Part shown: positions 1,414-17,391 of the stretch, in pieces | Layout of the letters: every line of letters starts with the position of its first letter | Position numbering within the stretch: position 1 is the stretch's first letter | NCBI RefSeq assembly: GCF_000223395.1 | Contig: NC_015931.1 | Span: 1,080,001 to 1,112,000 of the forward strand | Source: Pyrolobus fumarii 1A | GTDB lineage: Archaea; Thermoproteota; Thermoprotei_A; Sulfolobales; Pyrodictiaceae | Length of the DNA stretch: 32,000 bases | Direction: 5' to 3' | Position numbers and translations under genes: made by a program | Notes under the pieces: model-generated | What the model was told of the DNA's origin: nothing | What the model saw: only the letters and a program-made list of their open reading frames with translations | The model's database searches: none

Positions 1414-4400
1414 ATGGCTGTTAGGCTCGCCGCGCTGATAGTAGCCACTCTAATCACGCTTATCCTCCACGTGGTTGTTGCCCACGCCCAGCTACCCCCC
1501 TACAAGCCCCCCTATATCGAGGTGCAGGTGCCGGGGCGCGTAGCCACAGAGTACTTCGACGGCGGCAAGCTCTGGGTGGTGTACGAGCAGGGCGGCGAGA
1601 CGCACATAGCACTCTACACGCTGGTTGGGGGTGTGCCCGTCCAGCAGTGGGTTAGTAGTGTGCCAGGCGAGCCCATTGCAACAGCGACGACCGACGACCT
1701 TAGCCTGCTGGCCGTGGCGACCAGCGCCAAGAAGATAGTCGTGTATGATGTGAGCGGGCTGCCCATCCTCGAGATAGAGCGTGGCGTGCGCGGCAAACCG
1801 CTCTACGTCGCGCTCGCCTCGAGGAGCGGCGGCAAGGTAGATACTCTCATCGTCGTCGAGGTTGTCGGAGGCTCCTCGTACTGGGTTTACGCCTACGCCC
1901 TTGACAGGCCGGCTGCGAGGAGGGCTGAGCTCTGGCTCCCCGTACCCTCAGACCTCACGCTGGACAGGTTCAAGGTTGTCCCGGTGCGCGTGGCTGCGCG
2001 CGAGACCGCCGAGCCGGAGATAGCCGTTGTGCGCGTAGTGAACGTGGAGCTGAACTACACTGGGACGGTGGTAGAGGGTGACTATGCGCTAGTCGCCGAG
2101 GTGTATCGCGTCACGGATGCCCCCGGTGGCCTCGTCTTCGTGAAGAGCATGGCTGGCAACGTGACCCTAGGCTACGAGGTCGGCCGCGAGCCCTACACGA
2201 TATCGAGTATAGACTCTGTAGTCGTCTACCGGTTCGAGGGGAGCGACACGCTATACCTGCTCGCGAGCCTAACGCTCCAGCAGGCTAGCGTCCCCGGGGT
2301 CACGAAGACCCAGCTACCAGGCAACATCTACGGCTTCGTCGTCGCTGACCTCTCGAGGAACGAGAGTATAGTCCGCTACGAGGATAGCAGCGTGGGCACC
2401 CTCGACTTCTACCCGATGGCGGGGCCCGCCAGGTCCTTCGCCGTGACAAGCGACGGCGGGATAATCGCGGTCGGCTCGAGCGACTATAACGTCTACATGT
2501 TCTTCCGTGGGGTGGACGCCTACCGGGTCCGCTACTCGATTAGCCTCGGGAGTAGCGTGACAACCGTTGACATGACCCCGATTGGCAACCTGGTGGTGGC
2601 GGGTGCCAGCAACGGCGCGCTCTACGCCTTCAACGGCGGCGACGGCGAGATCTACTGGAGTCTACCCTCCCAGAGCAGCGTCACATCAGCTACCATCACT
2701 GCCAGCTACGCGGCTTTCGGCACCGAGGGCGGCCGCGTGATAGCCTTCACCAACCCGCGCGTCAAGCTCTACTATCTCGGCGTGCAGCTCAACCTTACGA
2801 ACGCCCCCGACTACGTCCTAGAGGCGACCACCAACATAACAGTCGTGGGCGTCTACCACGCGATGCTGGTTAACATTAGCGTCTCGGGCGTGACCAGCGA
2901 GCTTGTCGAGAGGCCCTTCTTTGCTCTCCTGCCGGCCGCCAACTACACGCTGATAGTCGATAACGAGGTCCTAGGCGTGGTGGTCTACAGCGTCACCCTC
3001 TCGGCCAACGTGGTCTACTGGCTGCAACCCGAGGCGTTCAAACTACCAGTCTACACGTTGACCGTGTGCCTCCTCGACACTATCACCCGGGGGCCGCCGG
3101 CGGACGCCCTCCTGAGGATAGAGCAGGTGCCCTTCCCCGGGCAGAACGAGACAAGCCTCGCCGTGTACACCCTCCCGTTCAACGAGACCGGGTGCGCCTC
3201 AGCGAGGCTACCACGCGGCTACTACACCATAGGGCTCCTCTCCTGGCGCTACCCCCCGGTGATAGAGGGGGCGCCACACACGATCAGGTTGTGGAGCGAC
3301 ACTCTCATCCGTGGCAACGTGACGCCCTACACGGCGAGGGTGACGGTCAGCGTCGCCACTAGCTACGGTATGCCCCTGGCGGGCGCCACGGTCACACTCT
3401 ACGACCCAACCACCGGCCTAGAGTATAACGCGACGACGAGCGGCACCGGCACGGTTGTAATCGACGGCGTGGCTTACGGCGCCTATCGGGTTAGGATACA
3501 CCACCCCCACATGAAGCCCTACGAGACGCGCCTCCTCGTCAACGAGAGTAGTGTCGCGCTAAGCGCCACGCTGAAACCAGAGACATACTTCGTCACGATA
3601 ATGGCCGTTGATGCCGAGACTGGGGCCCCGGTGGAGGGCCTAACCATCAAGATAACCAGGGTGTTCGACGGGTACACTGTGAGCGTCACTGTCGAGAAGA
3701 GCTATTACATCGCGAGGCTCGAGTACGGCGAGTACCGTGTGGAGATAGTGAAGACGGGCTACCAGCCCTACACGGCGAGCTTCACAGCAGACCATGATAT
3801 GAGGATCGAGGCCCGCCTCACGCCAATACTCTACACGGTGACAATCCAGGTGGTTGACAGCCTCTACCAGAGGAGCCTCCCCGCCCGCATAGTGGTGTTC
3901 AACCCGGAGACGGGTAGGAGGCTCGAGAGTGTAACCGCGACGGGGGTCGCGACGCTACAGCTGAGAGCCGGGAGCTACGTGCTACGCGCCTACTCGCCCT
4001 ACGCCCACCCAGCCACAAAGACGTTCATCGTGCCGGGAGCCGACCGTATCGTCGTCGAGCTGGTGCCCCGCAACTTCACGGTAGTAGTGACCCCCATTGA
4101 CTCCCTCGCGGATGTGCCAATAGCGCTGCTCGGGTACAACGCGAGTGGCGTAATAGAGTGTAGCGACACCGGCGAGTGGAGCATGGAGTGGGTGAACGGG
4201 AGCCTAGTAGCGACGCTACCCTACTCGAGGGGCTGTAGGGTCACCATCCAAGCCCCGTACTACAACCCGCTCGTCGAGACGATAGGCGACATTGGGGCCA
4301 ACACGACGCTGAGGGTCGCGCTCGAGCCGGTGCTCTACACGCTCGTTATACGCGCTCGGAGCGAGTACGGGATACCCACGTCCTTCAACGCCACGGTGAC

Positions 4401-5706
4401 TGGCGGGCCCCTAAACGAGAGGTTCACCGTCTCTGGGCGTGGGGAGGCGACCCTAAGGCTGAGGCCCGGCGTCTACACGGTACGCGTCACCGCCAAGTAC
4501 CACGAGGCTAACGAGACGAGGGTTGTAGTCGAGGGGGACACTAGCGTAACCGTGACGCTACCCCTCCGAGTCTACACGGTAACCCTCCGCGCCATAGACT
4601 CGACGACCGGCAACCTCGTCACCGGCGCCACGGCGGTATTGACGAGAGTCGCGCCAACACAATCCAAGCCCGTCGTACTAGACCTCCGCGCCGGCACGGC
4701 GAGGATCCCGCTAACCTGGGGCACCTACAAGGTCAGGATCAGCGCACCAGGATACGCCGAGAAGACAGTGACGTTCACGGTGCCAGAGGCTACTAGCGTC
4801 GCCGTCCCACTAGACCCGCTCACATTCACGCTAAGGCTGCGAGTCGTCGACGCCCTCACCAACGAGCCCATCGGGAACGCGACGGTCATGATATTCGGTG
4901 TGCGGACCGGCACAGCAGTCAAGGCGCTAACCGACAAGACGGGTAGCCTAAAGCTAAGCCTGCGCAGCGACACCTACAGGATAGTCGTGCTGGCAGAGTA
5001 CCACCTCGGCGCCGAGAGGCAGGTAACCCTCCTCAACGATACGGAGCTCACCGTCAAGCTAGAGCCCGTGAAGTACACGCTGACGCTCAGAGTGAGCGAC
5101 GGCGTGACGCTCAAACCCTTCACGGGCAAGTGGTATGCGGTGTTCGAGAGGAAGGAGGGAGGCTTCAAAGAGAACATGACCTTCGAGGGCCCGGAGGCTG
5201 TGGTCCAACTCCCCTACGGCACCTATAAGGTCGTGCTAGGCGCGCCGAGGTACGACAAGAACGTGTTGAACGTGGAGCTGTACAACGATACGACCCTCAA
5301 AGCGGCGATACCCAGGAAGAGGTACACCGTTACGATAAAGGTGCTAGACGCTAGAGGCTCACCCGTCCCCAACGCGATAGTCACGCTAACCCTCACAGAG
5401 ACCGGCGCCCAGCTCTACACCGGGGTGACCGGCGACGACGGCACGGTCACACCAAGCCTACCGTGGGGCACGTACAGGCTCACCATCGAGGCGGGAGGCT
5501 ACCACCCATACACGACCATCGTCACGGTCAAAGAGGAGGGCCAGACGATACCAGCGATGATACGCCCAACGCTAGCCAAGATAATCCTAGACCTACTCCC
5601 AGCGATAATAATCGCAGGCGCGGTGATAGGCTCGGCAGCGTGGATAGGGATCAGGGTGCGCAGGAAACCAGTCAGCCTAGAGCTGCTAGAGGAGGAAAGC
5701 GAGTAA
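1414..5706 (+). CDS. Giant membrane-anchored surface protein, probably glycosylated: N-terminal signal/TM, beta-propeller-like region, at least 9 tandem Ig-like (CarboxypepD_reg/prealbumin-like) repeats, C-terminal TM anchor
   Basis: ORF track gives 1384..5706 (GTG). The ATG at 1414 gives MAVRLAALIVATLITLILHVVVAHAQ (signal/TM), so 1414 is preferred. Residues ~60-460 carry repeated strand motifs (LLAVATSAKKIVVYD, IIAVGSSDYNVYMF, LVVAGASNGALYAFNGGDGEIYWS, AAFGTEGGRVIAF) typical of PQQ/WD40-like propellers. Residues ~650-1390 carry ~85-aa repeats of the form Y[TF][VL]T[IL]..[VI]D..TG.P...A.V....T...G...L.L..G.Y.V.V...GY. N-x-S/T sequons are abundant. The C-terminus is IILDLLPAIIIAGAVIGSAAWIGI followed by RVRRKP. 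Confidence 0.8.
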   Translation: MAVRLAALIVATLITLILHVVVAHAQLPPYKPPYIEVQVPGRVATEYFDGGKLWVVYEQGGETHIALYTLVGGVPVQQWVSSVPGEPIATATTDDLSLLAVATSAKKIVVYDVSGLPILEIERGVRGKPLYVALASRSGGKVDTLIVVEVVGGSSYWVYAYALDRPAARRAELWLPVPSDLTLDRFKVVPVRVAARETAEPEIAVVRVVNVELNYTGTVVEGDYALVAEVYRVTDAPGGLVFVKSMAGNVTLGYEVGREPYTISSIDSVVVYRFEGSDTLYLLASLTLQQASVPGVTKTQLPGNIYGFVVADLSRNESIVRYEDSSVGTLDFYPMAGPARSFAVTSDGGIIAVGSSDYNVYMFFRGVDAYRVRYSISLGSSVTTVDMTPIGNLVVAGASNGALYAFNGGDGEIYWSLPSQSSVTSATITASYAAFGTEGGRVIAFTNPRVKLYYLGVQLNLTNAPDYVLEATTNITVVGVYHAMLVNISVSGVTSELVERPFFALLPAANYTLIVDNEVLGVVVYSVTLSANVVYWLQPEAFKLPVYTLTVCLLDTITRGPPADALLRIEQVPFPGQNETSLAVYTLPFNETGCASARLPRGYYTIGLLSWRYPPVIEGAPHTIRLWSDTLIRGNVTPYTARVTVSVATSYGMPLAGATVTLYDPTTGLEYNATTSGTGTVVIDGVAYGAYRVRIHHPHMKPYETRLLVNESSVALSATLKPETYFVTIMAVDAETGAPVEGLTIKITRVFDGYTVSVTVEKSYYIARLEYGEYRVEIVKTGYQPYTASFTADHDMRIEARLTPILYTVTIQVVDSLYQRSLPARIVVFNPETGRRLESVTATGVATLQLRAGSYVLRAYSPYAHPATKTFIVPGADRIVVELVPRNFTVVVTPIDSLADVPIALLGYNASGVIECSDTGEWSMEWVNGSLVATLPYSRGCRVTIQAPYYNPLVETIGDIGANTTLRVALEPVLYTLVIRARSEYGIPTSFNATVTGGPLNERFTVSGRGEATLRLRPGVYTVRVTAKYHEANETRVVVEGDTSVTVTLPLRVYTVTLRAIDSTTGNLVTGATAVLTRVAPTQSKPVVLDLRAGTARIPLTWGTYKVRISAPGYAEKTVTFTVPEATSVAVPLDPLTFTLRLRVVDALTNEPIGNATVMIFGVRTGTAVKALTDKTGSLKLSLRSDTYRIVVLAEYHLGAERQVTLLNDTELTVKLEPVKYTLTLRVSDGVTLKPFTGKWYAVFERKEGGFKENMTFEGPEAVVQLPYGTYKVVLGAPRYDKNVLNVELYNDTTLKAAIPRKRYTVTIKVLDARGSPVPNAIVTLTLTETGAQLYTGVTGDDGTVTPSLPWGTYRLTIEAGGYHPYTTIVTVKEEGQTIPAMIRPTLAKIILDLLPAIIIAGAVIGSAAWIGIRVRRKPVSLELLEEESE

Positions 5707-5746
5707 CCCCCGCAGTCGCCACACGCCCACCATACACTTGTAGAGT

Positions 5747-5968
5747 CTAGCTCTGCTCTCCGCCCTCGCCATGCACCCTGTTAAGCTCCTCAATAACCCT
5801 CTTAACGATCTCGAGCGTATCGGGGGTAAGCGGAGCCTCGACAAGAACCCCATTCACCTCCAAGACCAGACGCACACCCATCCACACCACCTCCAGCCTA
5901 GAACCAGGCACGACACCATCCCCAGGCACCCACCACCGCAAGTAAATACACAAGCAGCAACACGCCAC
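5747..5968 (-). CDS. Small hypothetical protein. The real start may be the internal ATG at 5881, giving 44 aa (MGVRLVLEVNGVLVEAPLTPDTLEIVKRVIEELNRVHG...)
   Basis: ORF track only; no recognisable motif. Convergent with the giant surface-protein gene. The N-terminal Cys/Trp-rich part looks non-genic. Confidence 0.2.
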   Translation of the reverse strand: MACCCLCIYLRWWVPGDGVVPGSRLEVVWMGVRLVLEVNGVLVEAPLTPDTLEIVKRVIEELNRVHGEGGEQS

Positions 5969-6787
5969 GACATATAATGAAGAGTAACACAGATAGGTTA
6001 TGACGCTCTACAATCAGGAGAGAACCAGCCCCGGCTAGTAAAGACCCTATAGTAGGTATGAATGTAGTTATGTATCGAAGGTGAGCAATAGGGCTTATCG
6101 CGAAGAAGATGGGTTTGAATCTACGTGTTGTCGAGTTTTTCGCTGAGCATGGAGTTGAGGAATCTTGTCGCCGAGCTAGGCTACCAACTGGAATTATTGC
6201 TCGACATTGCCGAGGTGTACGCTAGGAGGCCTGAAGACTACATACTCGGCTGGAGACAAGCTCCTTAGAGAGTTGGGTGGCAAGCCCCCGGAGAACCGGC
6301 TCCGGGAAGCTATCGAGTACATCATAAACTCCATTCAACCAAGAAGCCCATAGAATATAACGCTCGCATCCGCGCCGCTGAACCCTATCCCGCCACAGGA
6401 GGGGGTACAGACACACCCACCGGTAGACGACAGCCTTAGAAGCAGGCTAGCGGAAGGCGCGTATACATACGTACGTCAATTTCAACTGGGACAATCCCGC
6501 GGAGGAATTGACCTCAGTATTGAAGCGACTAACCTCAACTATAGCTTATGCCCTGGCGAGCTGATTTATTGCATCATGGTCGGCTATGGGTATTGGATAG
6601 TGGTCTAGGCTTAGAGTGGGACGGGAACCCGGATGTATTATCGTCGAAGCTTGTCACGCCTAGTCACAATGAGTATAGTGCAGAGGTTCACGGCTATGGT
6701 CGCTGCGAGGGGAGTTAGCCATGCTAGTATCAGCGCTATGGGGTTCTGGAGGAGGTTATACAACCATGTCACGATGACCACCCTCTA

Positions 6788-7885
6788 CTAGGGCCTTTCC
6801 GGAAGGATAAATACGTATAGTATGTGGTTGTCGAACAACACCAGGTCGTTAAACTCTAGGTCTATACTCTCACCGCTTCTCACTATGAGTTTCTCGCCTC
6901 TCCTAAACACGACAAGATCCGTATACGCGTACATACTTGTGCCCCTCACATGCCTCTTAACCGCGAGGTACACTGGTCGTCCATCAACACGTATAACGCC
7001 TCTAGAGCCTATGCTTACCTCGCCGTAACCTAGCGGCTTGTAAACACCATCTATAACGATATGAGGGACTAGCAGTTGCGGGTTAAAAGATGCAACAATC
7101 TTCAACAGCTGGAGAGGATCAAGGCTGTTACGATACTCGGGATCCAGCACCAGCTGTGTGAACAGTTCCAAGAGGCTACTTGGAGCGGGAGCCAACGAGA
7201 GCGCCTTGGCGAACTCTTTTGGGTCGCGTGGCGGGCTTAACCCGGTAACCAAGTAGTAGTATATGCCGGCAAGGCTGTAGAGATCGCAGCCAGAGCCGGG
7301 GGTCTCGCCGCCGAGAGCCTCTGGGCACGTATACCCTGGTGTTCCTGCCGCGAAGCCCGCAGCGTCAAAAGGTCGTGCAACACCAAAGTCGATGAACACC
7401 ATGCCACGCTTGGGAACTGGTATAACGTTACCCGGCTTTAGGTCGCAATGAGCAAAACCACGGCCGTGGATATGGACTAGCGATGCGAGTGTATAGAAGA
7501 CGGCTGTGACAGCCTTAAGGGGGTTCAAGCGGCCGACGGCGTTAAGGCTCTTGTAGGGTATGTACTCTATCGCAACGAGCTTGACATCATCTAAGTCTAG
7601 ACGGGTATGCAGTCTGGGCACTATAGGCATATCGTGCAATACGCTCAGCACTTGCGCCTCGTTAGTTATTTGGCTAGTGCCGCTCCCCCAGCCAAGCTTG
7701 ACGATAACACGTTTATTCTGATACAGGGCTAGCAGAGTCATCCTGCCACGAGAGTTCTTTAGCAACCTGAGAGGCTGGAAGCCTAGAGTCGATAGCCTTG
7801 ACTCTATATCCCCTGGCATCATGGTGTACTCCCAGCTGTTAAGAAGCGTGTTGTGATGCTCGTCTTTAACCCTATGGAAGCTCAA
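6788..7885 (-). CDS. Hanks-type Ser/Thr protein kinase with a C-terminal degenerate FHA-like beta domain
   Basis: Kinase motifs: VIVK (beta3 Lys), NEAQVL (alphaC Glu), HCDLKPGN (catalytic loop), DFG, GTPGYTCPE (activation/APE). The C-terminal ~95 aa (HIVIDGVYKPLGYGEVSIGSRG...) align with the start of the FHA in 11242..12528 but have IGS instead of IGR and no S-x-x-H. TTG start at 7885 overlaps the PP2C stop by 14 nt; alternative ATG at 7822. Confidence 0.85.
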   Translation of the reverse strand: MSFHRVKDEHHNTLLNSWEYTMMPGDIESRLSTLGFQPLRLLKNSRGRMTLLALYQNKRVIVKLGWGSGTSQITNEAQVLSVLHDMPIVPRLHTRLDLDDVKLVAIEYIPYKSLNAVGRLNPLKAVTAVFYTLASLVHIHGRGFAHCDLKPGNVIPVPKRGMVFIDFGVARPFDAAGFAAGTPGYTCPEALGGETPGSGCDLYSLAGIYYYLVTGLSPPRDPKEFAKALSLAPAPSSLLELFTQLVLDPEYRNSLDPLQLLKIVASFNPQLLVPHIVIDGVYKPLGYGEVSIGSRGVIRVDGRPVYLAVKRHVRGTSMYAYTDLVVFRRGEKLIVRSGESIDLEFNDLVLFDNHILYVFILPERP

Positions 7886-8795
7886 CTATAATGACTGTGG
7901 CGTCGTCCGGTGGGCTGCCTCCGCTTCCCGACAGCAGCCTTCTCAGGATACGCTCTGCTGTCTCGTGGGGGTCCCTGGTCTCTGACACTATGCGCGATAA
8001 CTCCTCGTCATGCACATAATTATGGATGCCATCGCTAACAAGTAGTATTCTAGCGGGTCTATTCACCTTATGGTAGGAGTAGTAAGGTTCTGCTCGCCTA
8101 TCCTGTAAGCTTGAAACGACATTGGTGACCACGTTGGGATTCATGGGGTCTACGTGATCCTGCGTCAATAGCTTGAGCTTATTATTGGCATCGTGTATGT
8201 ATAGACGTGTGTTACCAACGTGTACAAGGAATACGTAATCACATAGTATCAGTGTACCTGTCAGCGTGGTTGCAGCGTAGATGGGTACACCCAGTGTCCT
8301 AGAGTACTCGGCCAGCTTGGCTTTGAGAGTCTCATCTGCCCCCTGAACACTTTGCATCAAGACGCCGCTGACAGCGATCGATATGTCTCTGAGTCTTCTC
8401 TCTAGTGCGTCACACGTTCTGGTCTTGCTATGCGCCTCCACCATACCAAGGATTTGGGGGAGTGAGAAAGTCACTGTGTTTAGAAAGTAGTCAATGACGG
8501 CCTTGGATGCTAGTGCGCCTAGACCGCCACCCGATACACCGTCAGCTATAGCAGCGATAACATACTCTATCTTGTCTCTCCCGATGTCAATGCGGCCAAG
8601 TTCACATCTCGCCTCATCTTCGTTCCAGTAGTGCCTGGCACCGCGAATGCTCTTAATTATACAGCGGGCTGTGCTGCGTGACGCAACGCTGCGTCTAACA
8701 GCCATTAGTGTAAGTGTACTCGTCGCTAGTGTAACCCAGGGTAGTGCGAGTGCAGCTGTCTCCAGGAGCATCGACATCACGCTACTCCACCTCAT
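7872..8795 (-). CDS. PP2C-family Ser/Thr protein phosphatase with N-terminal TM segment
   Basis: PP2C motifs in order: IADGVSGGGLGALAS, LVHVGNTRLY, LTQDH, LLVSDGIHNYV, DDATVIIV. N-terminal hydrophobic stretch is MSMLLETAALALPWVTLATSTLTLMAV. Its ATG overlaps the upstream stop (ATGA at 8792-8795). Confidence 0.85.
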   Translation of the reverse strand: MRWSSVMSMLLETAALALPWVTLATSTLTLMAVRRSVASRSTARCIIKSIRGARHYWNEDEARCELGRIDIGRDKIEYVIAAIADGVSGGGLGALASKAVIDYFLNTVTFSLPQILGMVEAHSKTRTCDALERRLRDISIAVSGVLMQSVQGADETLKAKLAEYSRTLGVPIYAATTLTGTLILCDYVFLVHVGNTRLYIHDANNKLKLLTQDHVDPMNPNVVTNVVSSLQDRRAEPYYSYHKVNRPARILLVSDGIHNYVHDEELSRIVSETRDPHETAERILRRLLSGSGGSPPDDATVIIVELP

Positions 8796-9277
8796 GAGAG
8801 GTAGACCTCGTTACCTGTCTGGTCTAGTGTCATACGAAGCCCGAGCTCATCGAGACCCTCTTGGAGCAGCTTGAGTATATTACTTACATTCTTGAAGCCG
8901 TATCTCTCCTTCACCTCGTTGAGATCAAGCCTACCTCTAAGCACTAGCTCCCCTATGAGCCTCTCACGTATATGCTCCTCGACAGCCTTAGCTTCGTTCT
9001 CAAATATCTTCGCGAGTATCTTGATAGCGAATATAAGCGCTAATAGCGTGACAAGAGGCACCACAGCCTCATTCACGTACGCCTTTATGCCGGTCATTAC
9101 GTCATTTGCTCTGGTCAACACGTCCAGCTTCACAATAGCATTATAAGCTAGCATTATAGTGAATAAAGCCTTTAATCCTATAGCAAGATACCCAAGAAAC
9201 TTGCCAAGTACCGAGATAATACCATAGTATCTTGCTATGGGCACAACCGGGCGCTGAACACTCTCCGCTATGCTCAA
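8792..9277 (-). CDS. Membrane protein (2 predicted TM) with C-terminal wHTH-like domain; paralogue of 10601..11221
   Basis: TM stretches YYGIISVLGKFLGYLAIGLKALFTIMLAY and VVPLVTLLALIFAIKILAKIF. The C-terminal GRLDLNEVKERYGFKNVSNILKLLQEGLDELGLRMTLDQTGNEVYL resembles a winged helix. TTG start is preceded by GAGGTGA (Shine-Dalgarno-like). Confidence 0.6.
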   Translation of the reverse strand: MSIAESVQRPVVPIARYYGIISVLGKFLGYLAIGLKALFTIMLAYNAIVKLDVLTRANDVMTGIKAYVNEAVVPLVTLLALIFAIKILAKIFENEAKAVEEHIRERLIGELVLRGRLDLNEVKERYGFKNVSNILKLLQEGLDELGLRMTLDQTGNEVYLS

Positions 9278-9290
9278 CCACCGCTCACCT

Positions 9291-9989
9291 CTAAGGCTGT
9301 TGAGACTGTTGCGACGATGGCATTAGGGGGGCCGCAAACTTAAAGACGATGTTTATGACCCCCGCTGGCGATATCACGTCGCCATCTTTGAGTTGTATCC
9401 AGCCTCTGCCTTTGATTGGCTGGTTGTTGAGAAACGTCGGATTTGTGCTGTAATCGTCGCGTATGTAGCATATTATCGTGTTAATGTCGCGAATCTCGCA
9501 CCATATCCGGAACTGCCCGCCCTTCTCCCTCCTCGTGATATACCTTATGTACGGCTCTGGAATCAGCCCCTCGAAGTCCTCACGACCGAACACTCTGCTC
9601 TTCTCGTACACCTCTATGTACCTACCATCGGGGAAGATCAGGCGGTATGGTATTGGCAACTCCATTGTGGTTGGCAGCGTTGAGCGGCCTACACCGTGCT
9701 GTTGCACCGGCTGGGGGGTCAGAGAGGCAACCACAGTCTCGCTGGAGGATACGGCTGTGGGTCGTGACATGGAGACGGTCTGTGGTGTGTGTTGTGAGGA
9801 GGAGTATGCAGGTGGAGGTGCTTGCTGGTCTCCACCCCGCTGGTAGTATTGCGCGAATGTCGCGCTCATAACTCTAGTCTCATCTAGTCTAGCCCCACAG
9901 TTTTGACAGTAGATGGCATCAGGCGGGTTTGCATAACCACATGCCGGGCAGCGTTTTCTACCAGCCGCATTGAAGTGGTACGAGGACAT
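9291..9989 (-). CDS. Zn-ribbon plus FHA-domain protein (ArnA-like architecture)
   Basis: N-terminal CPACGYANPPDAIYCQNCGARL (C-x2-C...C-x2-C), then an S/T/P/Q-rich linker. C-terminal FHA motifs: RVFGRED...YITRRE...ICYIRDDYSTNPTFLNNQPI...DGDVI. The ORF track extends to 10043, but the ATG at 9989 (MSSYHF...) avoids overlap with the upstream gene ending at 10003. Confidence 0.8.
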   Translation of the reverse strand: MSSYHFNAAGRKRCPACGYANPPDAIYCQNCGARLDETRVMSATFAQYYQRGGDQQAPPPAYSSSQHTPQTVSMSRPTAVSSSETVVASLTPQPVQQHGVGRSTLPTTMELPIPYRLIFPDGRYIEVYEKSRVFGREDFEGLIPEPYIRYITRREKGGQFRIWCEIRDINTIICYIRDDYSTNPTFLNNQPIKGRGWIQLKDGDVISPAGVINIVFKFAAPLMPSSQQSQQP

Positions 9990-10002
9990 GTATCCCACCC
10001 CT

Positions 10003-10485
10003 CTAGGCCAACGGAGTACCACACTTCTTACAATACTTGGCATTAGGGTCGTTTAACGTACCACACCTACTACATACCCTCCCTCCGGTAGTGCCTCTAG
10101 CTTGTGCTACCGGCGATACCATAGTTTGGCTACCAGATGGAATGCTAGGAGGTTGCGGGGTGCCCCCCACAGCACCAGACATGGGAGTTACCAGTGTCTC
10201 GCCGCCTGTACCGCCTGACGGTGAGGTGGGCGGCTGCACACCTACTCCTCGGGGTTGAGGCTGGAGTGTCGGGGGTGGCGGAGGGGGCGGCGTACGTGGT
10301 ACACCAGATCCACCTGTTGCTGGCTGCACCCCACTGTTCTGCGATGGCTGGGTTCTGCCAACTACCGTCTCCACTTGCTTTCTCCCGCGCTTCTTCGTTA
10401 TCATAGGCAATACCAGTATGTACAGGAGGACTCCTAGAACGACTATGCCTATTATGATGAAGATCGCTACTAGAGCCTCTAACAT
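10003..10485 (-). CDS. Single-pass membrane protein with Pro/Ser/Thr/Gly-rich linker and C-terminal Zn ribbon
   Basis: N-terminal TM ALVAIFIIIGIVVLGVLLYILVLPMI followed by KKRGRK, so the rest is likely cytoplasmic by the positive-inside rule. Low-complexity PPPPPPP/TSPSGGTGG linker. C-terminal CSRCGTLNDPNAKYCKKCGTPL. First gene of the minus-strand operon. Confidence 0.7.
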   Translation of the reverse strand: MLEALVAIFIIIGIVVLGVLLYILVLPMITKKRGRKQVETVVGRTQPSQNSGVQPATGGSGVPRTPPPPPPPTLQPQPRGVGVQPPTSPSGGTGGETLVTPMSGAVGGTPQPPSIPSGSQTMVSPVAQARGTTGGRVCSRCGTLNDPNAKYCKKCGTPLA

Positions 10486-10520
10486 TGCCTAGCACCCAAT
10501 TTACTAATACTGTAAAGAGC

Positions 10521-10530
10521 ATATATATAA
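10521..10530. promoter_or_regulatory. Palindromic TATA-like element (ATATATATAA) in the 95-115-nt divergent intergenic region
   Basis: It lies 36-45 nt upstream of the ATG at 10485 (minus operon, giving a short leader) and 50-70 nt upstream of TTG 10580 / ATG 10601 (plus operon). It is the only strong AT-rich box in the spacer. Confidence 0.35.
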
Positions 10531-10600
10531 TGAATGTTGGAGCGTGTAGTGCTGGAGGTGGTCGGTTATACCGGGCCCTTTGACCAGGGAACTTCTAACA

Positions 10601-11221
10601 ATGTCTCCAGAGATCAATCTAGAGGTACAGATAACCTTCGATCTACGTTCCACGATCCTCTACTATGCTGCTAGGGTTACTACTCATACACTGGTGATAC
10701 TCAGATACATCATTATAATCTCCTTGATAATAACCGGGTTGAACATGCTTACGAGGCTCGACTTACTTACGTCCCTATTGTTAAAATGGCCACCCGATGT
10801 ATCGGGCATAGCCCTCCTCATCCTCAACGGGTGGATATACGCTGTTTTCGCGTATGTGATAGTTGCGGCGTTGAAAGTTGCTTTCGAGAAGCTATACCTG
10901 GATTATGTGCAGTCGAGGATAAACGAGCTTGAACGTATCATCAGTAGCTCACCCGGCGCGGTACCAGTAGCGAAGCTAGTTGAGATGCTTGGGTTGAGGA
11001 ACATCTACGAGTTTCTCGCAGCGGCAAACGCGTATCTCCTCAAGAGGGGTTCGAAGAGGGTGTACAGAATCCAGGTTGACCCCAATACTGGAACCGAATA
11101 CTTGGTGGAGAGCACGTTAAGCGGACAACCGGTGTCTCTGCCAGCTGTGCCGAGCAGCAATGATAGTAGTGAGGCCGAGACAGAGATCTTCGGCTCGTTT
11201 GGTAGTGAAGAGCAGCGCTGA
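10601..11221 (+). CDS. Membrane protein (about 3-4 TM) with C-terminal wHTH-like domain and acidic S-rich tail; paralogue of 8792..9277
   Basis: ORF track gives 10580 (TTG); the ATG at 10601 is preferred. It shares with 8792..9277 the pattern TM...A[LI]K[VI][AL]FE...helical linker...[VL].E..G[LF][RK]N[IV]...L...G......D..TG.EYL. Confidence 0.6.
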   Translation: MSPEINLEVQITFDLRSTILYYAARVTTHTLVILRYIIIISLIITGLNMLTRLDLLTSLLLKWPPDVSGIALLILNGWIYAVFAYVIVAALKVAFEKLYLDYVQSRINELERIISSSPGAVPVAKLVEMLGLRNIYEFLAAANAYLLKRGSKRVYRIQVDPNTGTEYLVESTLSGQPVSLPAVPSSNDSSEAETEIFGSFGSEEQR

Positions 11222-11241
11222 AACCATAGGGTGACAGTGAA

Positions 11242-12528
11242 ATGACCGGCTGTCGGCTTGAACAGAAGCCTGCCGAGCCTATCCAGGGTACTGCGAGCAC
11301 CTATCATGTTGTGAAGCTGCTTGGTAGCGGGGGTCAGGTGTGTGCATGGCTAGGTGTAGATAGAGCCACGGGCGAGTATGTTGTGATTCGTGTTCCTAGG
11401 CCGGATCTACCCCCGGATCTCTATCAGTTGCAGGTGAACAGGCTTAGGATAGCATACCGGATACTCTATGTGCTATATCAATATGCGTCCCAGACGAGGC
11501 TCCACATGTACTTCGAGCAGCCTCATGATTATACCGATATGGATCACACGTTCATGATGATGACTAAATATGTCGAAGGAGATGACCTCGAATCTTTCAT
11601 CGCATGCAGTGAGATGGGTATGTTATCGTCAGAATGTAAGCGGGTAGTAGGTGGTCTGCTTGATGCCGTGTACTTCATGCACCAGTTGGGCATTATACAC
11701 CGTGATATAAAGCCGAGGAACATTAGGAGTGCTCCGTGGGGTCCGGTGCTCATCGACTTTACAACTGCAAAGTACTTTTACGACGTGACTCTTGGCGACG
11801 TTTATGTTTATTCTACCGGTGGGTACACCGCCCCCGAGCAGATGGAGTACGCGATAGCCTCTCCACAAAGTGACGTCTGGAGCATGGGCGCTACCTTGCT
11901 GAGACTAGCAGCTAGGAAGGAGCCAGCAAGAATACTCCGGGGGTACCCGAAGCAGCTGCGTCGCCTAGCACCACACGACATTAAGAGGATTGCTCCGCGA
12001 GCAGAGGGGCTGGCTGAACTGATAGCGGCGGCTCTCGACCCGGACCCGTGTCTACGTCCAGCCACGCTGGACGAGGCTAGAACGCTTATCGGCGGTGGGA
12101 GCATAGAGGTGGGATTCGCGGAGGTGATCCTCCTAGGCAACAAGTATACCATAGAAGAGCGTGGTGTATGCATAGGAAGATCTAGCTCGTGTCACATCCA
12201 GATACCCCGGGATAGGGACCCAAACAACTTCATATCGGGTGTGCATGCAGTGATATTCTGGGATGAATTGAGGAAGGAGTGGATGATTCAAGATATGTGC
12301 AGCTTGAACGGGACTGCGGTGTGGAGGCCGGGTATCGACGAACACTGGGTGATAGTTTGGCCGGGAAGGAAGGTGACCGGACATATATGCATAAAGGGTC
12401 ATCCCGTTGGCGAGCCACTCCCTCTCGGCAAATCAGCACTGATATCCCTCGGTTTCGATCAAAACCTAGGACCTTACCTTATCGCAGTGTTTCGTGCTGG
12501 GCCACAAATTATATCGTCTATAGCCTAA
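11242..12528 (+). CDS. Kinase-like (possibly pseudokinase) protein fused to a canonical C-terminal FHA domain
   Basis: LGSGGQV Gly loop, HRDIKPRN, GGYTAPE and DVWSMG are present. The beta3 position reads VVIRV (Arg, not Lys), no alphaC Glu is evident, and DFG is replaced by DFT. FHA motifs: CIGRSSSCHIQI...FISGVHAVIFWD...WMIQDMCSLNGTAVW. GGTGA lies 8 nt before the ATG. Confidence 0.85.
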   Translation: MTGCRLEQKPAEPIQGTASTYHVVKLLGSGGQVCAWLGVDRATGEYVVIRVPRPDLPPDLYQLQVNRLRIAYRILYVLYQYASQTRLHMYFEQPHDYTDMDHTFMMMTKYVEGDDLESFIACSEMGMLSSECKRVVGGLLDAVYFMHQLGIIHRDIKPRNIRSAPWGPVLIDFTTAKYFYDVTLGDVYVYSTGGYTAPEQMEYAIASPQSDVWSMGATLLRLAARKEPARILRGYPKQLRRLAPHDIKRIAPRAEGLAELIAAALDPDPCLRPATLDEARTLIGGGSIEVGFAEVILLGNKYTIEERGVCIGRSSSCHIQIPRDRDPNNFISGVHAVIFWDELRKEWMIQDMCSLNGTAVWRPGIDEHWVIVWPGRKVTGHICIKGHPVGEPLPLGKSALISLGFDQNLGPYLIAVFRAGPQIISSIA

Positions 12529-13067
12529 ACGCTATGGATAACGATACTTACCCTCTCTAGCTAAGAAGTTGGTGGTAACACTTGCTCACGAGCTTATACA
12601 TCATTTATAAGCTACTAAATCGGTATTGAAGCTTGACTATATCATGCAGGGATTTGTATTTAAACTAGCATTGTATGCACGAATTGCGACGTGATGGCTC
12701 AAATAGAGCGGATGGTGCCTTATGTCTGTAGACAGCATGAGGTGGAAATGTGGAAGAAAGCCTACAGACTCGCCTTTTATTTGTGGCTTAATTGGAGTGT
12801 ACGCTCAGTAGTTTACGACATTGCTCGAAGCATTATTCATATGTAGTAGTGTAAGTTGGGTACGAGTATGACTCTAGTTTTATACCATTGGGACAATAAT
12901 GGCTGAGTGTACTTATGTACTAGCATGTACAAGCTGTGAGGATAAGAAAGCATGGGATATACGATGAAAGCTTCCTAGGACAACGATGATAGTACTGAAG
13001 GCGGCCTGTACATCATTAGCTTCTCTGTGGCGTGTATCGGGAGAGCCTAGGGAGGCTCCTCTACTAT

Positions 13068-13109
13068 GATACTCTGGGTATAATACCCTGGGTATGATAC
13101 TCTGGGTAT
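13068..13109. promoter_or_regulatory. Three perfect-register tandem 14-bp repeats (GATACTCTGGGTAT / AATACCCTGGGTAT / GATACTCTGGGTAT), each an ATAC-N5-GTAT dyad, spanning a TATA-like box
   Basis: Counted directly: 13068-13081, 13082-13095, 13096-13109. GTATAATA at 13079-13086 sits 29 nt before the TTG start at 13115, which is leaderless geometry. Confidence 0.6.
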
Positions 13110-13114
13110 GAGGA

Positions 13115-14344
13115 TTGGCGTTGAGGGTTGTAGTTGAGAGGCCGTGGCTCTCCAGGTTTCTTTTGAGTGGTGGGAGGAGGCTGTTATATGGTAGGAGGAA
13201 GACGGGGAAGACCTTCTACGCTAGGAGGGTTCTCCGCGAGTACCAGTTTTTTATCGTGCGGAGGGGCGGGGCGATATACGACCCGGTTAACGACGAGACC
13301 CTCGACGTTGCGGGTTTCCTTCGTCTCTGTAGGCTCGGCGAGCGGATAATCCTTGATGAGTTCCACCGGGCTGACCCCAGGATATTCGATGCTGTGCAGG
13401 CGGGCGTGTGTAGCGAGGAGCTTGTTTTCATCACCTCGACTCTCCACTACTACAGGAGGTTTGTGGAGGAGCCGGAGGCGCCTCTCAAGGGCCTCTTTGC
13501 CGTGCGGCGCGTTGGGCTCCTAACGCCCCTTGAACTCTTGAACACGGGTTGGGGTGGGCTGGAGGAGGAGCCCGCTAGGCTCATAGAGCATCTCGTCTTC
13601 TACCAGGAGCCCGTGTTGATAGGGAGGAGTCTCGGTGACATAGTAGCCTCGGGGATGGAGTATGCGCGTTCGCTTCTCGGCGAGGTGCTTACCGAGGAGG
13701 ACCACCGCTACACGGCTAGATTCGACGCTATACTCGAGGCTATAGCGGCGGGGCGCACCAGGCTAACCGAGATATCATCCTACCTCTACTTGAGGGGTTT
13801 GATAGAGAAGGATTCACCCAGCCACGTCACGAAATACCTGGATGTGATGGTGAGAGTCGGGCTCCTGGAGAGGCTGGAGGTTTGGGGTAGGAGGAGAGGC
13901 AGCATATACCGCCACTACTCGCCCCTAACCGACCTCGCCTACCACCTCCAGGCGAGATACGACTTCTACGAGGTGCCCGCGCCCCTCGAATACGGGGTGA
14001 GGGCCGCCAGGCAGCGCCTCCCCCTGCTCGTAGAGGTGTTCGCCGAGAGGCTACTGGCGCAGCTCTACGGGTTGAAGCCTGTGAAGATACTAGAGCCGGA
14101 GGTCGACATCGCGCTCGTGCGCTTCAAGAGGCTCGAGCTAGTCGCCGAGGTCAAGTGGGTCTCTAGACTCTCACGGGACGAGGTAAGGAGGGTAGAGGAG
14201 AAGCTCTACAGGCTAGAGGCGGAGAAGCGCATCCTCATAGTCCCGGATGAGAGCATAGTCCCCGAGACTAGCCTCGAAGTGTGGGACGCGAAGAGGATGA
14301 TAAAGGAGGCGAGAGCAGCCAAGAGCATCCTCGAGAACCTCTAG
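13115..14344 (+). CDS. Archaeal AAA+ ATPase (Arch_ATPase) with C-terminal DUF234-type wHTH/PD-(D/E)xK-like region
   Basis: Walker A is LLYGRRKTGKTF and Walker B is IILDEFH. The C-terminal LTEISSYL...VTKYLDVMVRVGLLER looks like a wHTH. EVDIALV...LVAEVKW is an E-x-D...E-x-K motif. This is the typical size and order for the family. Confidence 0.8.
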   Translation: MALRVVVERPWLSRFLLSGGRRLLYGRRKTGKTFYARRVLREYQFFIVRRGGAIYDPVNDETLDVAGFLRLCRLGERIILDEFHRADPRIFDAVQAGVCSEELVFITSTLHYYRRFVEEPEAPLKGLFAVRRVGLLTPLELLNTGWGGLEEEPARLIEHLVFYQEPVLIGRSLGDIVASGMEYARSLLGEVLTEEDHRYTARFDAILEAIAAGRTRLTEISSYLYLRGLIEKDSPSHVTKYLDVMVRVGLLERLEVWGRRRGSIYRHYSPLTDLAYHLQARYDFYEVPAPLEYGVRAARQRLPLLVEVFAERLLAQLYGLKPVKILEPEVDIALVRFKRLELVAEVKWVSRLSRDEVRRVEEKLYRLEAEKRILIVPDESIVPETSLEVWDAKRMIKEARAAKSILENL

Positions 14345-14422
14345 GTCCCCGGCGGCTTCTTGCATTAGATACGCACGGTGCGAGGCTGGTTGGGTAGCCT
14401 AGCCTTCCCCCAATCCTAGTCT

Positions 14423-15298
14423 TTAGCTCCTGGTGGTCTCCGCTAGCGCCTCTAGCGTCTCGAGTAGCCACTTCTCGGTCCTCTCGTGGGCGGCCACGTG
14501 CCTGTTCCAGTCGCGGTTTACGACGTGGACCCAGTAGGCTAGGAAGACGCCGAGCGTCAACAACGTGGCGACGATGTAGAGTATTGTTGGCCTCTCGGGT
14601 GTAGCCTCTCCCTCTAGGATCGGGGGTCTTGCGGCCGCGACGCCCTTCTCGCGGAGCACCTCGTATATCTGCTCGTAGAGCCTCCTCTCTACCCTCTCGT
14701 GCCTCGAGAGGTCGCGGCTCAGGAAGTGAAGTATGTAGAGTATCACGATGCTGAACACCAGGTATACTATAGCCCAGAGGCCCGGAGAGTGCTCCGACAA
14801 CGCGTCCCTAGCGTCATCCACCCGGTCCCTGAGCGCCGCGAGCCTAGCCCTATCCACCCCAAGCTCGGTGAACAACTCGTACACAGTCTGGTATATCCTG
14901 TCCACCCGGCGCCTATGGTCCACCTCCCTAGCGACCAGCTTGTAGACGGCATACACCGACCACAGGGCGAAGCCTACGGCAGCCGCCACAAGCCAGAACA
15001 CTAGGAGCCCAAGTAGAGCCGCAAAGCCAGCCGTAGCTTCAATCCTGACCTCCGAAGCCGCCTGGAGACGAGAGGAATGCATGTAGACGAACTCCGTCCC
15101 CGTGCCTATACTCGTCACGGCTCCCAAGACGAGCGCGAAGAGTAGAAGCCCGAGCATAACCGCGGATAGGGCCGCACCCACCACGAAGGGCAGCTCCACA
15201 AGCACAAAGGAGAACCTGGTATCGTTGCCCCTCTCCTCGATGTACTCCCTAAGCCGCGATATATACAGGCGCACAGTGTCCCTCTGCGATCCACTCAC
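14423..15298 (-). CDS. Polytopic membrane protein with three internal repeats (TM hairpin followed by Y..[VL].R[DE]..RH helix; DUF4234-like flavour)
   Basis: Repeat tails: VYAVYKLVAREVDHRRRVDRIY, ILYILHFLSRDLSRHERVERRLY, LAYWVHVVNRDWNRHVAAHERT. Each is preceded by a long hydrophobic stretch. GTG start at 15298. Confidence 0.6.
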   Translation of the reverse strand: MSGSQRDTVRLYISRLREYIEERGNDTRFSFVLVELPFVVGAALSAVMLGLLLFALVLGAVTSIGTGTEFVYMHSSRLQAASEVRIEATAGFAALLGLLVFWLVAAAVGFALWSVYAVYKLVAREVDHRRRVDRIYQTVYELFTELGVDRARLAALRDRVDDARDALSEHSPGLWAIVYLVFSIVILYILHFLSRDLSRHERVERRLYEQIYEVLREKGVAAARPPILEGEATPERPTILYIVATLLTLGVFLAYWVHVVNRDWNRHVAAHERTEKWLLETLEALAETTRS

Positions 15299-15596
15299 AG
15301 ACTAGAACACCCTCATAGACATAGCATTGACAAGGTATAGATTAAGTTGCTGACACCAATAAGGAGGATGCCACGCGGTACACCGAGCCCCTATCACCTC
15401 TCGCGCCCCGAAACCATCGACCCGGCTACCCCGCCACACCCGCGTGTGCCTAGAGGGGCACTGCCCTGGCCATCCACTCGCGTATAACCCTTCTCAGATC
15501 GTCTAGCCTGGCCACCCTGGAGCCCAGGCCGCGTAGGAGCTCCTCCACCCCATGCTCGTCTCTCACGATGACAACGCCTCTCCTTAATGCCATTCT

Positions 15597-15941
15597 TCAC
15601 GCTGGTTTCTCGACCGCTCTTCTCAGCTCCTCGGGCGTCATCGGGATAGGCTCTACCTTATCGGGGAGGACGTCCTGCACGAGCTTGTAGCGGTCGAGGG
15701 GGCGTATACCGCGAAACACCTCAGAGACTATTATGAGGTCGACGTCGCTCCACAGATTGAAGTCGCCACGCGCATAGCTACCGTGGAGCAACACAGAGAC
15801 CCTGCCAATGCGCGCCGCTAGCCTAGCGGCAGCCCCCTCAACCTCCTCGAGGATCCTAAGCCACTCTTCGAGCCTACTCCTCGGCACCCGAACATACTCC
15901 ACGAACGCACACCTCCACCGCCCCCACAACTCTCTCCGCAC
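15597..15941 (-). CDS. Minimal nucleotidyltransferase (MNT, antitoxin-type partner of HEPN); ends at an in-frame TGA that may be a nonsense mutation
   Basis: LLHGSYARGDFNLWSDVDLIIVS is the G-S...D-x-D NTase signature. The reading frame stays open for 48 more codons after the TGA (15450..15596: RMALRRGVVIVRDEHGVEELL...), which resembles the usual C-terminal helix of the family. Confidence 0.7.
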   Translation of the reverse strand: MRRELWGRWRCAFVEYVRVPRSRLEEWLRILEEVEGAAARLAARIGRVSVLLHGSYARGDFNLWSDVDLIIVSEVFRGIRPLDRYKLVQDVLPDKVEPIPMTPEELRRAVEKPA

Positions 15942-16268: not shown

Positions 16269-16439
16269 ACCCCCATACTCAATGATAAGCCGTAGACTGG
16301 GTGAGGGATGGAACCATCCCCGCGACTAAAGCGACGCGGAGACAGTTTCCCCGGGGCCTTCGCGTGTTCCACTCATATCCCCGTGCTGCATGGAAACATA
16401 AAGCGATGGGTTACGCGGTATACCTAGTGGCCGTCTCTT

Positions 16440-17123: not shown

Positions 17124-17160
17124 GGCTGAACAGGGCTACAGCTCCCCCACACCCTCACTC

Positions 17161-17299: not shown

Positions 17300-17391
17300 G
17301 GCACCGGTTTACGTAGAGTATGTGGAGTACGTGCTAATGCTAATATTCATCTCGGAAGCGAAGAACCACGCTAAGGATGGAGTGACGTGTA

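Follow-up and report, generated by a model that had tools for sequence, protein, structure and literature searches.

Organisation of the seven-gene locus

The 32,000-nucleotide stretch of the Pyrolobus fumarii 1A genome analysed here (contig NC_015931.1, positions 1,080,001 to 1,112,000; hereafter the window) contains, between positions 6788 and 12528, a cluster of seven open reading frames (ORFs) that we labelled A to G and studied as a candidate cassette for Ser/Thr phospho-signalling. All seven lie where a first-pass annotation of the window, made from the sequence alone, had placed them, and all are real ORFs. The seven genes and the spacer between the two divergent groups are as follows, with coordinates in the numbering of the window.

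6788-7822 (alternative start TTG 7885), minus strand: A, soluble Hanks-type Ser/Thr kinase, predicted to be active
7872-8795, minus strand: B, PP2C/PPM phosphatase whose hydrophobic N-terminus is a possible membrane anchor
8792-9277, minus strand: C, two transmembrane (TM) helices and a cytoplasmic PCI-like winged helix (8795-8953)
9291-9989 (alternative start 10043), minus strand: D, soluble ArnA-like protein with an N-terminal Zn ribbon, a Q/P/T-rich linker and a C-terminal FHA domain
10003-10485, minus strand: E, N-terminal TM anchor, cytoplasmic P/T-rich linker and C-terminal C4 Zn ribbon
10486-10600, no strand assigned: divergent spacer with a TATA-like ATATATATA at 10521-10529
10601-11221 (alternative start TTG 10580), plus strand: F, probable distant paralogue of C with two to three TM helices, a cytoplasmic winged-helix-like domain and an acidic tail
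11242-12528, plus strand: G, kinase-like domain (11302-12060), probably a pseudokinase, and a canonical FHA domain (12127-12501)

The division into two tightly spaced divergent gene groups, which the first-pass annotation had described as operons, is kept in related contigs, where the intergenic gaps within each arm range from -4 to 83 nt in the four cassettes measured. Genes C and B are joined by an ATGA overlap at 8792-8795, in which the stop codon of C shares the start of B, and the sequence GAGGTGA stands 7 nt ahead of the TTG start of C at 9277. Both of these features had been noted at first reading and are present in the sequence. A 14-nt overlap of A and B (7872-7885) that had been noted with them requires A to begin at TTG 7885, which would lengthen its product by 21 residues. 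Gene calls on identical public contigs instead begin A at ATG 7822 (344 residues), and with this start the overlap gives way to a 49-nt gap. For D, ATG 9989 (232 residues) is the more likely start rather than 10043, since it is used in the public gene calls and is preceded by the Shine-Dalgarno-like sequence GAGGGGTGGGA. Protein C is identical to Pyrfu_1155, and G is annotated in P. fumarii as a 'serine/threonine protein kinase with FHA domain'.

The spacer between E and F is 115 bp long and has a GC content of 44% (0.443). A spacer of 115-227 bp occupies the equivalent position in three related contigs (L003, L005, and L011), and positions 10486-10600 are a putative promoter region. The cassette had also been described as AT-richer than its flanks. 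Its GC content of 0.518 is indeed below that of the adjacent DNA (0.59-0.62), but the cassette is not a compositional outlier, ranking 26th among 106 windows of equal length where the mean of the whole window is 0.546.

Conservation of the gene cluster

Orthologues of G with 45-51% identity led to cassette-bearing contigs of uncultured organisms. At least seven independent contigs, with GC contents of 45-70% and unrelated flanks, repeat all or part of the gene arrangement, in order as well as in orientation. In one of these, L005, the whole set A to G is present with unchanged order and orientation, flanked by respiratory Fer4/NrfD genes on one side and MobB/ABC genes on the other. Contig L011 has the arrangement B-C-D-E / F-G, and L003 has C-D-E / F-G followed by the contig end. 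Contig L009 is rearranged, with a D-like region (4771-5376) that the gene caller split into ORFs of 117 and 68 residues, E / F-G, and A in convergent orientation. Parts of the minus-strand arm alone were found as E-D-C-B in L099 (GC 70%), D-C-B in L098, and C-B in L096/97 (GC 45%). The identities of the cassette proteins across contigs are 26-65%.

The neighbours of the two membrane proteins are particularly constant. Every homologue of C with readable context adjoins a gene for a PP2C and/or for a Zn-ribbon/FHA protein, and every homologue of F adjoins G, with the F orthologues preceding G in L003, L005, L009, and L011. The homologues of the accessory genes C and F thus co-localise with kinase, FHA, and PP2C genes in other genomes, and this upholds the proposal that the cassette is a self-contained unit.

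More distant relatives have related but looser arrangements. Contig L095 (26% GC) encodes at 723-4484 four co-directional genes for a two-TM protein, a G-like kinase-FHA protein, a TM-anchored PP2C, and an A-like kinase. The two-TM protein matches a hidden Markov model (HMM) of the C family with E 4e-7, the G-like protein keeps the Lys of the kinase active site with a DFT motif, and the A-like kinase has a canonical FHA domain; this minimal four-gene version probably resembles the ancestral cassette more closely. In Thermofilaceae, Vulcanisaeta, and the korarchaeon Methanodesulfokora, looser sets of G, D-like FHA, PP2C and/or A-like genes occur within a few kb. A further contig, that of the G homologue P0014 (JGI 3300075153, 3435-21014), holds a PP2C, at least six Zn-ribbon proteins, two adjacent kinase-FHA genes, a vWA-DZR fusion, and a pair of vWA and Zn-ribbon-FHA genes like ArnB/ArnA.

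Outside P. fumarii, the complete cassette was found in no more than a handful of uncultured relatives. A scan of genome contigs with G alone found nothing. The same scan with the A7 alignment gave, among the matches listed, distant archaeal relatives and generic bacterial kinases, and it recovered neither P. fumarii itself nor its close metagenome-assembled relatives and so says nothing on presence or absence in cultured Pyrodictiaceae. A metagenome scan with the A8 alignment yielded mostly matches to the generic HRDIKP pattern and nothing above 33% identity. A search of the literature for Pyrolobus together with FHA and similar terms gave no paper describing the cassette within the limited library covered.

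Kinase A, kinase-like protein G, and phosphatase B

The first-pass annotation had counted two kinases in the cassette, and both A and G do have a Hanks-type fold. In Pfam, A matches Pkinase with 64 bits against a cut-off of 31.7 (E about 1.6e-17) and G matches it with 83.5 bits against the same cut-off (E 2e-23). The closest relatives of G in the PDB are PknA and StkP, and PknA is also among the top matches for A. The catalytic set of A is complete, consisting of the β3 Lys (VIVKLG, 7691-7708), the αC Glu (NEAQ), HCDLKPGN (7427-7450), and DFG (7382-7390). These motifs are conserved throughout the orthologues of A, which is predicted from them to be a catalytically competent kinase.

The full catalytic set does not extend to G. 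The β3 Lys of protein kinases positions the phosphates of ATP, and its replacement by Arg is a classic kinase-dead mutation. Alignment of G to StkP and across its own orthologues identified this replacement in G (VVIRV, 11380-11394), with Arg in all five of the cassette-clade orthologues. The DFG motif is changed to DFT (11755-11763) in the same five sequences and in P0008, and the αC Glu is lost in P. fumarii and in three of the five cassette-clade sequences overall. The Thermofilaceae-type homologues P0009-P0013 retain Lys, Glu, and DFG, and P0014-P0015 retain Lys and DFG. We conclude that G is probably a pseudokinase, and the 'kinase-like' label that it had been given at first reading is apt, as the catalytic lysine is absent. 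Because the Lys-to-Arg change is conserved while the rest of the domain is conserved as well, the pattern suggests that the pseudokinase has been kept under selection rather than being in simple decay.

Two to three FHA domains had been proposed, of which those of D and G were recovered. The FHA domain of G scores 40.1 bits in Pfam against a cut-off of 20.7 (E 5e-10) and keeps the GR, SxxH, and NG signatures (IGRSS, SGVHA, and SLNGT). Among NCBIfam models its FhaB/FipA match is below cut-off and its match to TIGR03354 VI_FHA is weak (E 7e-4). The third proposed domain, at the C-terminus of A (~105 residues, 6791-7135), has no detectable signature, as there was no Pfam match at E <= 1, a score of -1 bit with a custom FHA HMM, and an hhalign probability of 19%; a PDB sequence search with this region also gave nothing. 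A single-sequence AlphaFold model of the region is all-β and unreliable, with a predicted local distance difference test (pLDDT) score of 45. The A-like kinases of L007 and L095 bear canonical FHA domains at the position of this C-terminal domain, and from that positional homology we infer that the tail of A is a degenerate FHA derivative. The complete kinase domain in A and the canonical FHA domain in G suggest a split between the two kinase paralogues, with A as the writer and G as the reader of phosphorylation.

Protein B had been described as a TM-PP2C. The PP2C assignment was borne out by profile matches above cut-off, PP2C_2 with 37.2 bits against 24 (E 2.9e-9) and PP2C with 26.6 bits against 20.3 in Pfam, together with the metal-binding Asp motifs. 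The match to the NCBIfam Stp1/IreP model has E 5e-18 and lies below the cut-off of that model. The best PDB relatives are chains of Mycobacterium tuberculosis PstP (1txo/2cm1), with which the metal-binding motifs NED, DGxxG (ADGVSGGG), SDG (VSDG), and DD (PDDAT) of B align. The Asp that binds the third metal is replaced by Asn (GNTR).

Zn-ribbon proteins D and E and their conserved threonine motifs

The presence of two Zn-ribbon proteins was confirmed by Pfam. Protein D matches Zn_Ribbon_1 (E 9e-7) and FHA (E 3.7e-5; 24.5 bits against a cut-off of 20.7), both above the gathering scores, and E matches Zn_Ribbon_1/DUF7577 (E ~1.5e-7). The features of the two proteins are listed below.

9885-9950, minus strand: C4 Zn ribbon of D
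9864-9881 and 9723-9740, minus strand: ETxV motifs of D
about 9330-9662, minus strand: FHA domain of D
10402-10479, minus strand: TM segment of E
10354-10371, 10183-10200, and 10111-10128, minus strand: ETxV-type motifs of E
10009-10074, minus strand: Zn ribbon of E

The Zn ribbon of E is akin to that of D (BLASTP E 5e-6), and the N-terminal TM segment of E is very hydrophobic (hydropathy 3.3). Among the FHA residues of D, the Arg and Asn do not vary. The profile of the D family matches the FHA domain of Chk2 and the ArnA chains 5a8i and 8s05, with the matches to ArnA covering Zn ribbon and FHA domain alike, which supports the likeness of D to ArnA that had been noticed at first reading.

Proteins D and E have Pro-rich linkers of otherwise variable sequence, in which short motifs of the form (G/D)-E-T-x-[V/I] occupy conserved positions; F has such a motif in its tail. 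Protein D carries two of them, ETRVMS and ETVVAS, and motifs of this kind are kept in all orthologues including those of L098 and L099. Protein E carries two or three, and residues T40, T121, and V123 are invariant in a linker that otherwise varies. The tail of F has one invariant T-x-x-F motif (ETEIFG, 11177-11194), in which T194 and F197 do not change. The motifs also recur outside the set of sequences from which they were defined, as GETLVTP and GETIVSP in E and DETVVM and DETIVA in D of L099, as GETEIMP in D of L098, and as GTQIY in the tail of the two-TM protein of L095. The ETxV motifs are reminiscent of ETTS, the phospho-switch of GarA/OdhI, an FHA protein of actinobacteria. Taken together, these patterns make the ETx[V/I] threonines of D, E, and F candidate phospho-sites.

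Membrane proteins C and F

Proteins C and F are each predicted to have two or more TM helices, and neither matched any Pfam family, helix-turn-helix (HTH) families included. Homology searches that rely on a word index returned only P. fumarii proteins with C or F as query, and an exhaustive HMMER search recovered only five full-length homologues of C among 1.84 billion representatives. An AlphaFold model of C built with six homologues (pLDDT 85.5) has two long TM helices, the second of which reaches into the cytoplasm, and a C-terminus with the β-α-α-β-β topology of a winged helix. The top Foldseek matches of this model are almost all PCI winged helices, from the COP9 signalosome (CSN), the proteasome lid, and eukaryotic initiation factor 3 (eIF3), and they also include a winged-helix protein of Sulfolobus turreted icosahedral virus (STIV) and MarR. 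In eukaryotes the PCI winged helices of CSN, the proteasome lid, and eIF3 assemble complexes. The two-TM homologue encoded on contig L095, introduced above, passes the Pfam PCI model (PF01399) with 23.1 bits against a cut-off of 22.

The first-pass annotation had described C and F as paralogues with a winged-helix-like domain, and this received moderate support from hhalign, the topology of the AlphaFold model, and the PCI match of the distant homologue. BLASTP between C and F gave no match. The two families align over their full length in hhalign (E 4.6e-5) and have in common a C-terminal strand, DPxxGxEY(L/V), so that C and F are probably distant paralogues.

The same annotation had compared C and F to the membrane-bound ArnR regulators. 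This comparison was abandoned, as the topology is inverted, with the TM segments N-terminal and the winged helix C-terminal, and the winged helices are PCI-like and mostly acidic, with net charges of -8 to +3. This acidity argues for protein-protein contacts and not for DNA binding, and a role for C and F as DNA-binding regulators was set aside on the PCI-like fold and the acidity together.

Genomic surroundings

The DNA around the cassette does not bear the marks of a mobile element. Rfam and tRNA scans across the window found nothing, and a repeat search found no repeats flanking the cassette. Without tRNA, flanking repeats, or an integrase, and with a GC content that is not an outlier in the window and homologous contigs that span 26-70% GC, the proposal that the cassette is horizontally mobile was not sustained.

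The ORF at 13115-14344 (409 residues) had been taken for a type IV pilus ATPase. It has no match to a pilus-ATPase profile in Pfam, NCBIfam, or the PDB; Pfam and PDB searches gave nothing at all, and NCBIfam gave only a sub-threshold match to the P-loop family Sll1717. A Walker-A-like GRRKTGKT can be read in its sequence, and it is a P-loop protein. Immediately upstream, at 13065-13109, stand three overlapping 17-nt direct repeats (TATGATACTCTGGGTAT, 14-nt spacing) that look like a repeated operator or regulator-binding site. This ORF is followed by a gene for a DUF4234 membrane protein (14423-15298, minus strand).

The right flank at 15597-23746 is rich in small genes of toxin-antitoxin or defence type, listed below, and suggests a variable genomic region beside the cassette.

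15597-15941, minus strand: NTP_transf_2
16440-17123, plus strand: DUF3782 and PD-(D/E)XK
18437-18940 and 21365-21772, plus strand: PIN
23360-23746, minus strand: TumE toxin

Further along, a 660-residue AAA_5/MoxR-like ATPase (25991-27973, plus strand) overlaps the start of a 460-residue ORF (27913-29295, plus strand) for which no Pfam match was found and no vWA domain was detected. The pair at 25991-29295 may be an McrBC-like or MoxR-partner two-gene system; vWA proteins of the ArnB type have been reported to associate with MoxR ATPases (PMC4858521).

On the other side of the cassette, a 1440-residue CarboxypepD_reg/β-propeller surface protein (1384-5706) ends 1.08 kb from A. Three unrelated lineages, represented by this protein, by L013 (14103-15824), and by the P0014 contig, encode large secreted or surface proteins with CarboxypepD_reg, β-propeller, and Ig/PKD domains no more than a few kb away from kinase/FHA genes. 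None was found in the flanks of L003, L005, L009, and L011. This proximity is a weak lead to the output of the cassette and is possibly due to chance.

Proposed mechanism and alternative explanations

The domain identities of the seven proteins, the conservation of the cluster, and the patterns of catalytic and binding residues in each protein are established directly. On this basis we think it reasonably probable that the cassette is a lineage-conserved, self-contained Ser/Thr phospho-signalling module operating at the cytoplasmic face of the membrane; none of its proteins has a sizeable extracytoplasmic domain. In this module A would be the writer kinase and would phosphorylate the threonines of the (G/D)-E-T-x-[V/I] motifs, which D and E carry in their disordered linkers and F in its tail. 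The canonical FHA domain of G, and probably the FHA domain of D too, would serve as readers of the resulting phosphothreonines, and the pseudokinase domain of G could serve as a scaffold or as an allosteric partner. Docking of the FHA domains would change which of the Zn-ribbon proteins stay at the membrane, and B, held by its N-terminal anchor, would erase the marks and reset the system. The invariant pairing of the C and B genes and of the F and G genes, the ATGA coupling of C to B, and the PCI-type winged helices lead us to propose that C tethers B and F tethers G at the membrane, and the winged helices could also join C to F. The two kinase paralogues may have degenerated reciprocally in the Pyrolobus clade, A becoming the writer and G the reader; in distant relatives both paralogues have a complete FHA domain, and the Thermofilaceae-type G has a complete kinase domain. 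By analogy with ArnA, our best guess for the output is a phosphorylation-dependent capture or release of the ArnA-like protein D.

Several observations count against a module of this kind. All of the mechanistic steps are inferred, and no conserved neighbour or target gene that would point to an output was found in the flanks of the cassette. The cluster is also not intact in every relative. The L009 contig lacks B and C, and in L011 a fragment of 119 N-terminal residues that is unrelated to A (3-359) stands after B. At the level of the proteins, G retains HRDIKPRN, with the HRD motif and the catalytic Asn, as well as the Asp of DFx and the Gly-rich loop, and kinases with the Lys-to-Arg change are usually, not invariably, dead. 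The N-terminal TM segment of B, to which the proposed anchoring appeals, is clear in the L095 homologue but borderline by hydropathy in P. fumarii. The FHA domain of D has Thr for the canonical Ser, an EKGG insertion, and Gln at the His position, which makes its binding of phosphothreonine uncertain. The ETxV motifs are short and only weakly enriched in single proteins (shuffle p 0.03-0.5), and the argument for phospho-sites therefore relies on their positional conservation. The PCI matches of C have Foldseek probabilities of 0.9-0.99 but a best E of 0.013, which is not significant, and the hhalign probability for C and F is just 69%.

The output might instead be a surface structure, with the cassette acting as an Arn-like switch over the giant surface protein or a pilus-like filament, D in the part of ArnA and C and F in that of ArnR. 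This proposal, part of the first-pass annotation, bears on the output and does not conflict with the biochemical model described above. The ArnA architecture of D, which matches ArnA structures, speaks for it, as do the short distance from A to the 1440-residue surface protein, the large surface proteins that L013/L014 and the P0014 contig encode close to related kinase/FHA genes, and the ArnB/ArnA-like pair of vWA and Zn-ribbon-FHA genes on the P0014 contig. However, the supposed ATPase at 13115-14344 has no match to a T2SSE/PilB-type profile, the cassette has no vWA gene, and the flanks in L003, L005, L009, and L011 are unrelated (respiratory Fer4/NrfD genes, an RsmB methyltransferase, and Thg1, among others). 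With flanks that differ in every genome, the link to a surface structure was not upheld. In addition, ArnA and ArnB are reportedly never found in type IV pilus or archaellum loci (PMC4858521), and the N-terminal TM segments and acidic PCI-like winged helices of C and F are unlike a DNA-binding HTH. We regard this output as unlikely. A regulator of membrane remodelling, division, or vesicles, akin to the Ser/Thr kinase (STK) and phosphatase (STP) genes of euryarchaeal loci for the endosomal sorting complex required for transport (ESCRT), would account for the PCI-like winged helices of C and F, given that ESCRT neighbourhoods hold STKs with PCI-like winged helices, STPs, and FHA proteins (PMC11188069). 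The window ORFs that were scanned and the Pfam annotation of the homologous loci have no match to Vps4, ESCRT-III, or CdvA, however, and the winged helix here lies in separate small proteins and not within a kinase, so we hold such a role to be extremely unlikely.

Matches of both kinases to the PADLOC PD-T4-6 and mad6 models and to NCBIfam MAD6/PglW raise the alternative of a mobile anti-virus or stress island of the kinase-kinase-phosphatase type (compare the bacterial Stk2, PD-T4-6, and KKP modules), in which infection would set off mass phosphorylation and growth arrest. The toxin-antitoxin-rich right flank in P. fumarii, with two PIN genes, TumE, NTP_transf_2, and PD-(D/E)XK, and the different context in every genome would also suit an island, and a prophage module of two kinases and a phosphatase is known (PMC11341870). 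These kinase matches, however, reflect only the generic fold (PD-T4-6, mad6, PglW, and MkoA), with NCBIfam scores far below the family cut-offs. Neither B, C, E, nor F matches any PADLOC model, and D has just a weak Zn-ribbon match to Cas12f (E 0.0019). The cassette encodes no effector such as a nuclease, pore, or NADase, and has no integrase, tRNA, or flanking repeat. Its GC content is unexceptional in the window, its homologues sit on contigs of widely differing GC, and protein identities of 26-65% look like vertical divergence. A defence island is in our view highly unlikely. A fortuitous neighbourhood of independent signalling genes would fit with how widespread kinase, FHA, and Zn-ribbon genes are and with the incomplete sets of cassette genes in some related genomes. 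The conserved order and orientation on at least seven contigs with unrelated flanks, GC contents of 45-70%, and gaps of -4 to 83 nt argue otherwise, as do the neighbour associations of C and F, which hold in all readable contexts, and this synteny effectively refutes a chance juxtaposition.

The phospho-signalling module that we favour could be extended, tentatively and with considerable doubt, to a membrane-tethered archaeal 'signalosome', in which C and F would oligomerise through their PCI winged helices, gathering B, A, and G, and the complex would control a phosphothreonine-dependent capture of D and E by way of the degron-like ETxV motifs. If true, this would be an unrecognised archaeal signalling architecture, with an early, non-eukaryotic use of PCI scaffolding and a pairing of kinase with pseudokinase. 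To our knowledge, archaeal Ser/Thr phospho-signalling is known almost only from the dispersed Arn network of Sulfolobus. Only one archaeal PPM phosphatase had been studied by the time of a 2016 review (PMC5007285). The cassette would offer a compact set of seven genes amenable to reconstitution in vitro, with motifs that give the exact residues to mutate. Proteins C and F, orphans until now, stand for two membrane-protein families that carry a PCI-like winged helix, and A and G may be a clean instance in nature of paired kinase-FHA paralogues that degenerated in complementary fashion, one into the writer and the other into the reader.

Comparison with known systems

In its operation the cassette is closest to the Arn network, the actinobacterial fhaA-fhaB-pstP-pknA-pknB genes, and the PpkA/PppA/Fha pathway of the type VI secretion system (T6SS), and it is not a member of any of these. 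With the Arn network it shares Hanks-type kinases, a Ser/Thr phosphatase, and FHA binding that depends on phosphorylation (PMC5007285, PMC12852372), and both D and ArnA consist of a Zn ribbon, a linker, and an FHA domain. The E value of the match between D and ArnA is only ~1e-4 to 1e-5, and D is ArnA-like rather than an established orthologue. Unlike the network, the cassette has no vWA partner corresponding to ArnB, in agreement with the first-pass annotation; no VWA match was found by Pfam in the window ORFs scanned or in the annotation of L003, L005, L009, and L011, and only the distant P0014 contig has a vWA gene paired with a Zn-ribbon-FHA gene. The phosphatase of the cassette is a PP2C/PPM and not a PP2A/PPP enzyme, the kinases carry FHA or FHA-derived domains of their own, and the genes are clustered whereas the Arn genes are dispersed. 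Finally, C and F combine N-terminal TM segments with a PCI-like winged helix, whereas ArnR has an N-terminal HTH and C-terminal TM helices.

The actinobacterial fhaA-fhaB-pstP-(rodA-pbpA)-pknA-pknB operon likewise encodes two FHA proteins, a membrane-anchored PP2C, and two Hanks-type kinases. The best PDB relatives of the cassette proteins are PstP for B and PknA/StkP for G, and the FHA domain of G has its sub-threshold match to FhaB/FipA. The cassette differs in being archaeal, in having soluble kinases without PASTA or TM segments, one of which has degenerated, in lacking cell-wall genes, and in adding Zn ribbons and PCI-like scaffolds. The trio of kinase, PP2C, and FHA protein is shared with the T6SS pathway of PpkA, PppA, and Fha1-TagH, where it forms a phospho-dependent switch for assembly at the membrane; the cassette comes from an archaeon, and no T6SS or secretion family was found by Pfam among the window ORFs scanned.

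The combination of a degenerate kinase with an FHA domain in G has its own parallels. In the type VIIb secretion system, the pseudokinase YukC/EssB and the FHA domain of EssC provide a degenerate kinase fold as a membrane-proximal scaffold together with FHA, and the MviN pseudokinase and FhaA of M. tuberculosis follow the same theme of a pseudokinase scaffold with FHA recognition. Unlike these assemblies, G fuses both domains in one soluble protein, and its link to the membrane would come from the PCI-like proteins. The closest parallel to the latter lies in the archaeal ESCRT gene neighbourhoods described by Makarova et al. in 2024, which encode membrane-associated STKs with a C-terminal PCI-like winged helix, STPs, and FHA proteins (PMC11188069). 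The euryarchaeal loci thus share with the cassette TM segments, a PCI-like winged helix, a Ser/Thr kinase, a phosphatase, and sometimes FHA. In those loci, however, kinase and winged helix form a single fusion protein and Vps4 and ESCRT-III are encoded as well, whereas in the P. fumarii cassette it is carried by the stand-alone two-TM proteins.

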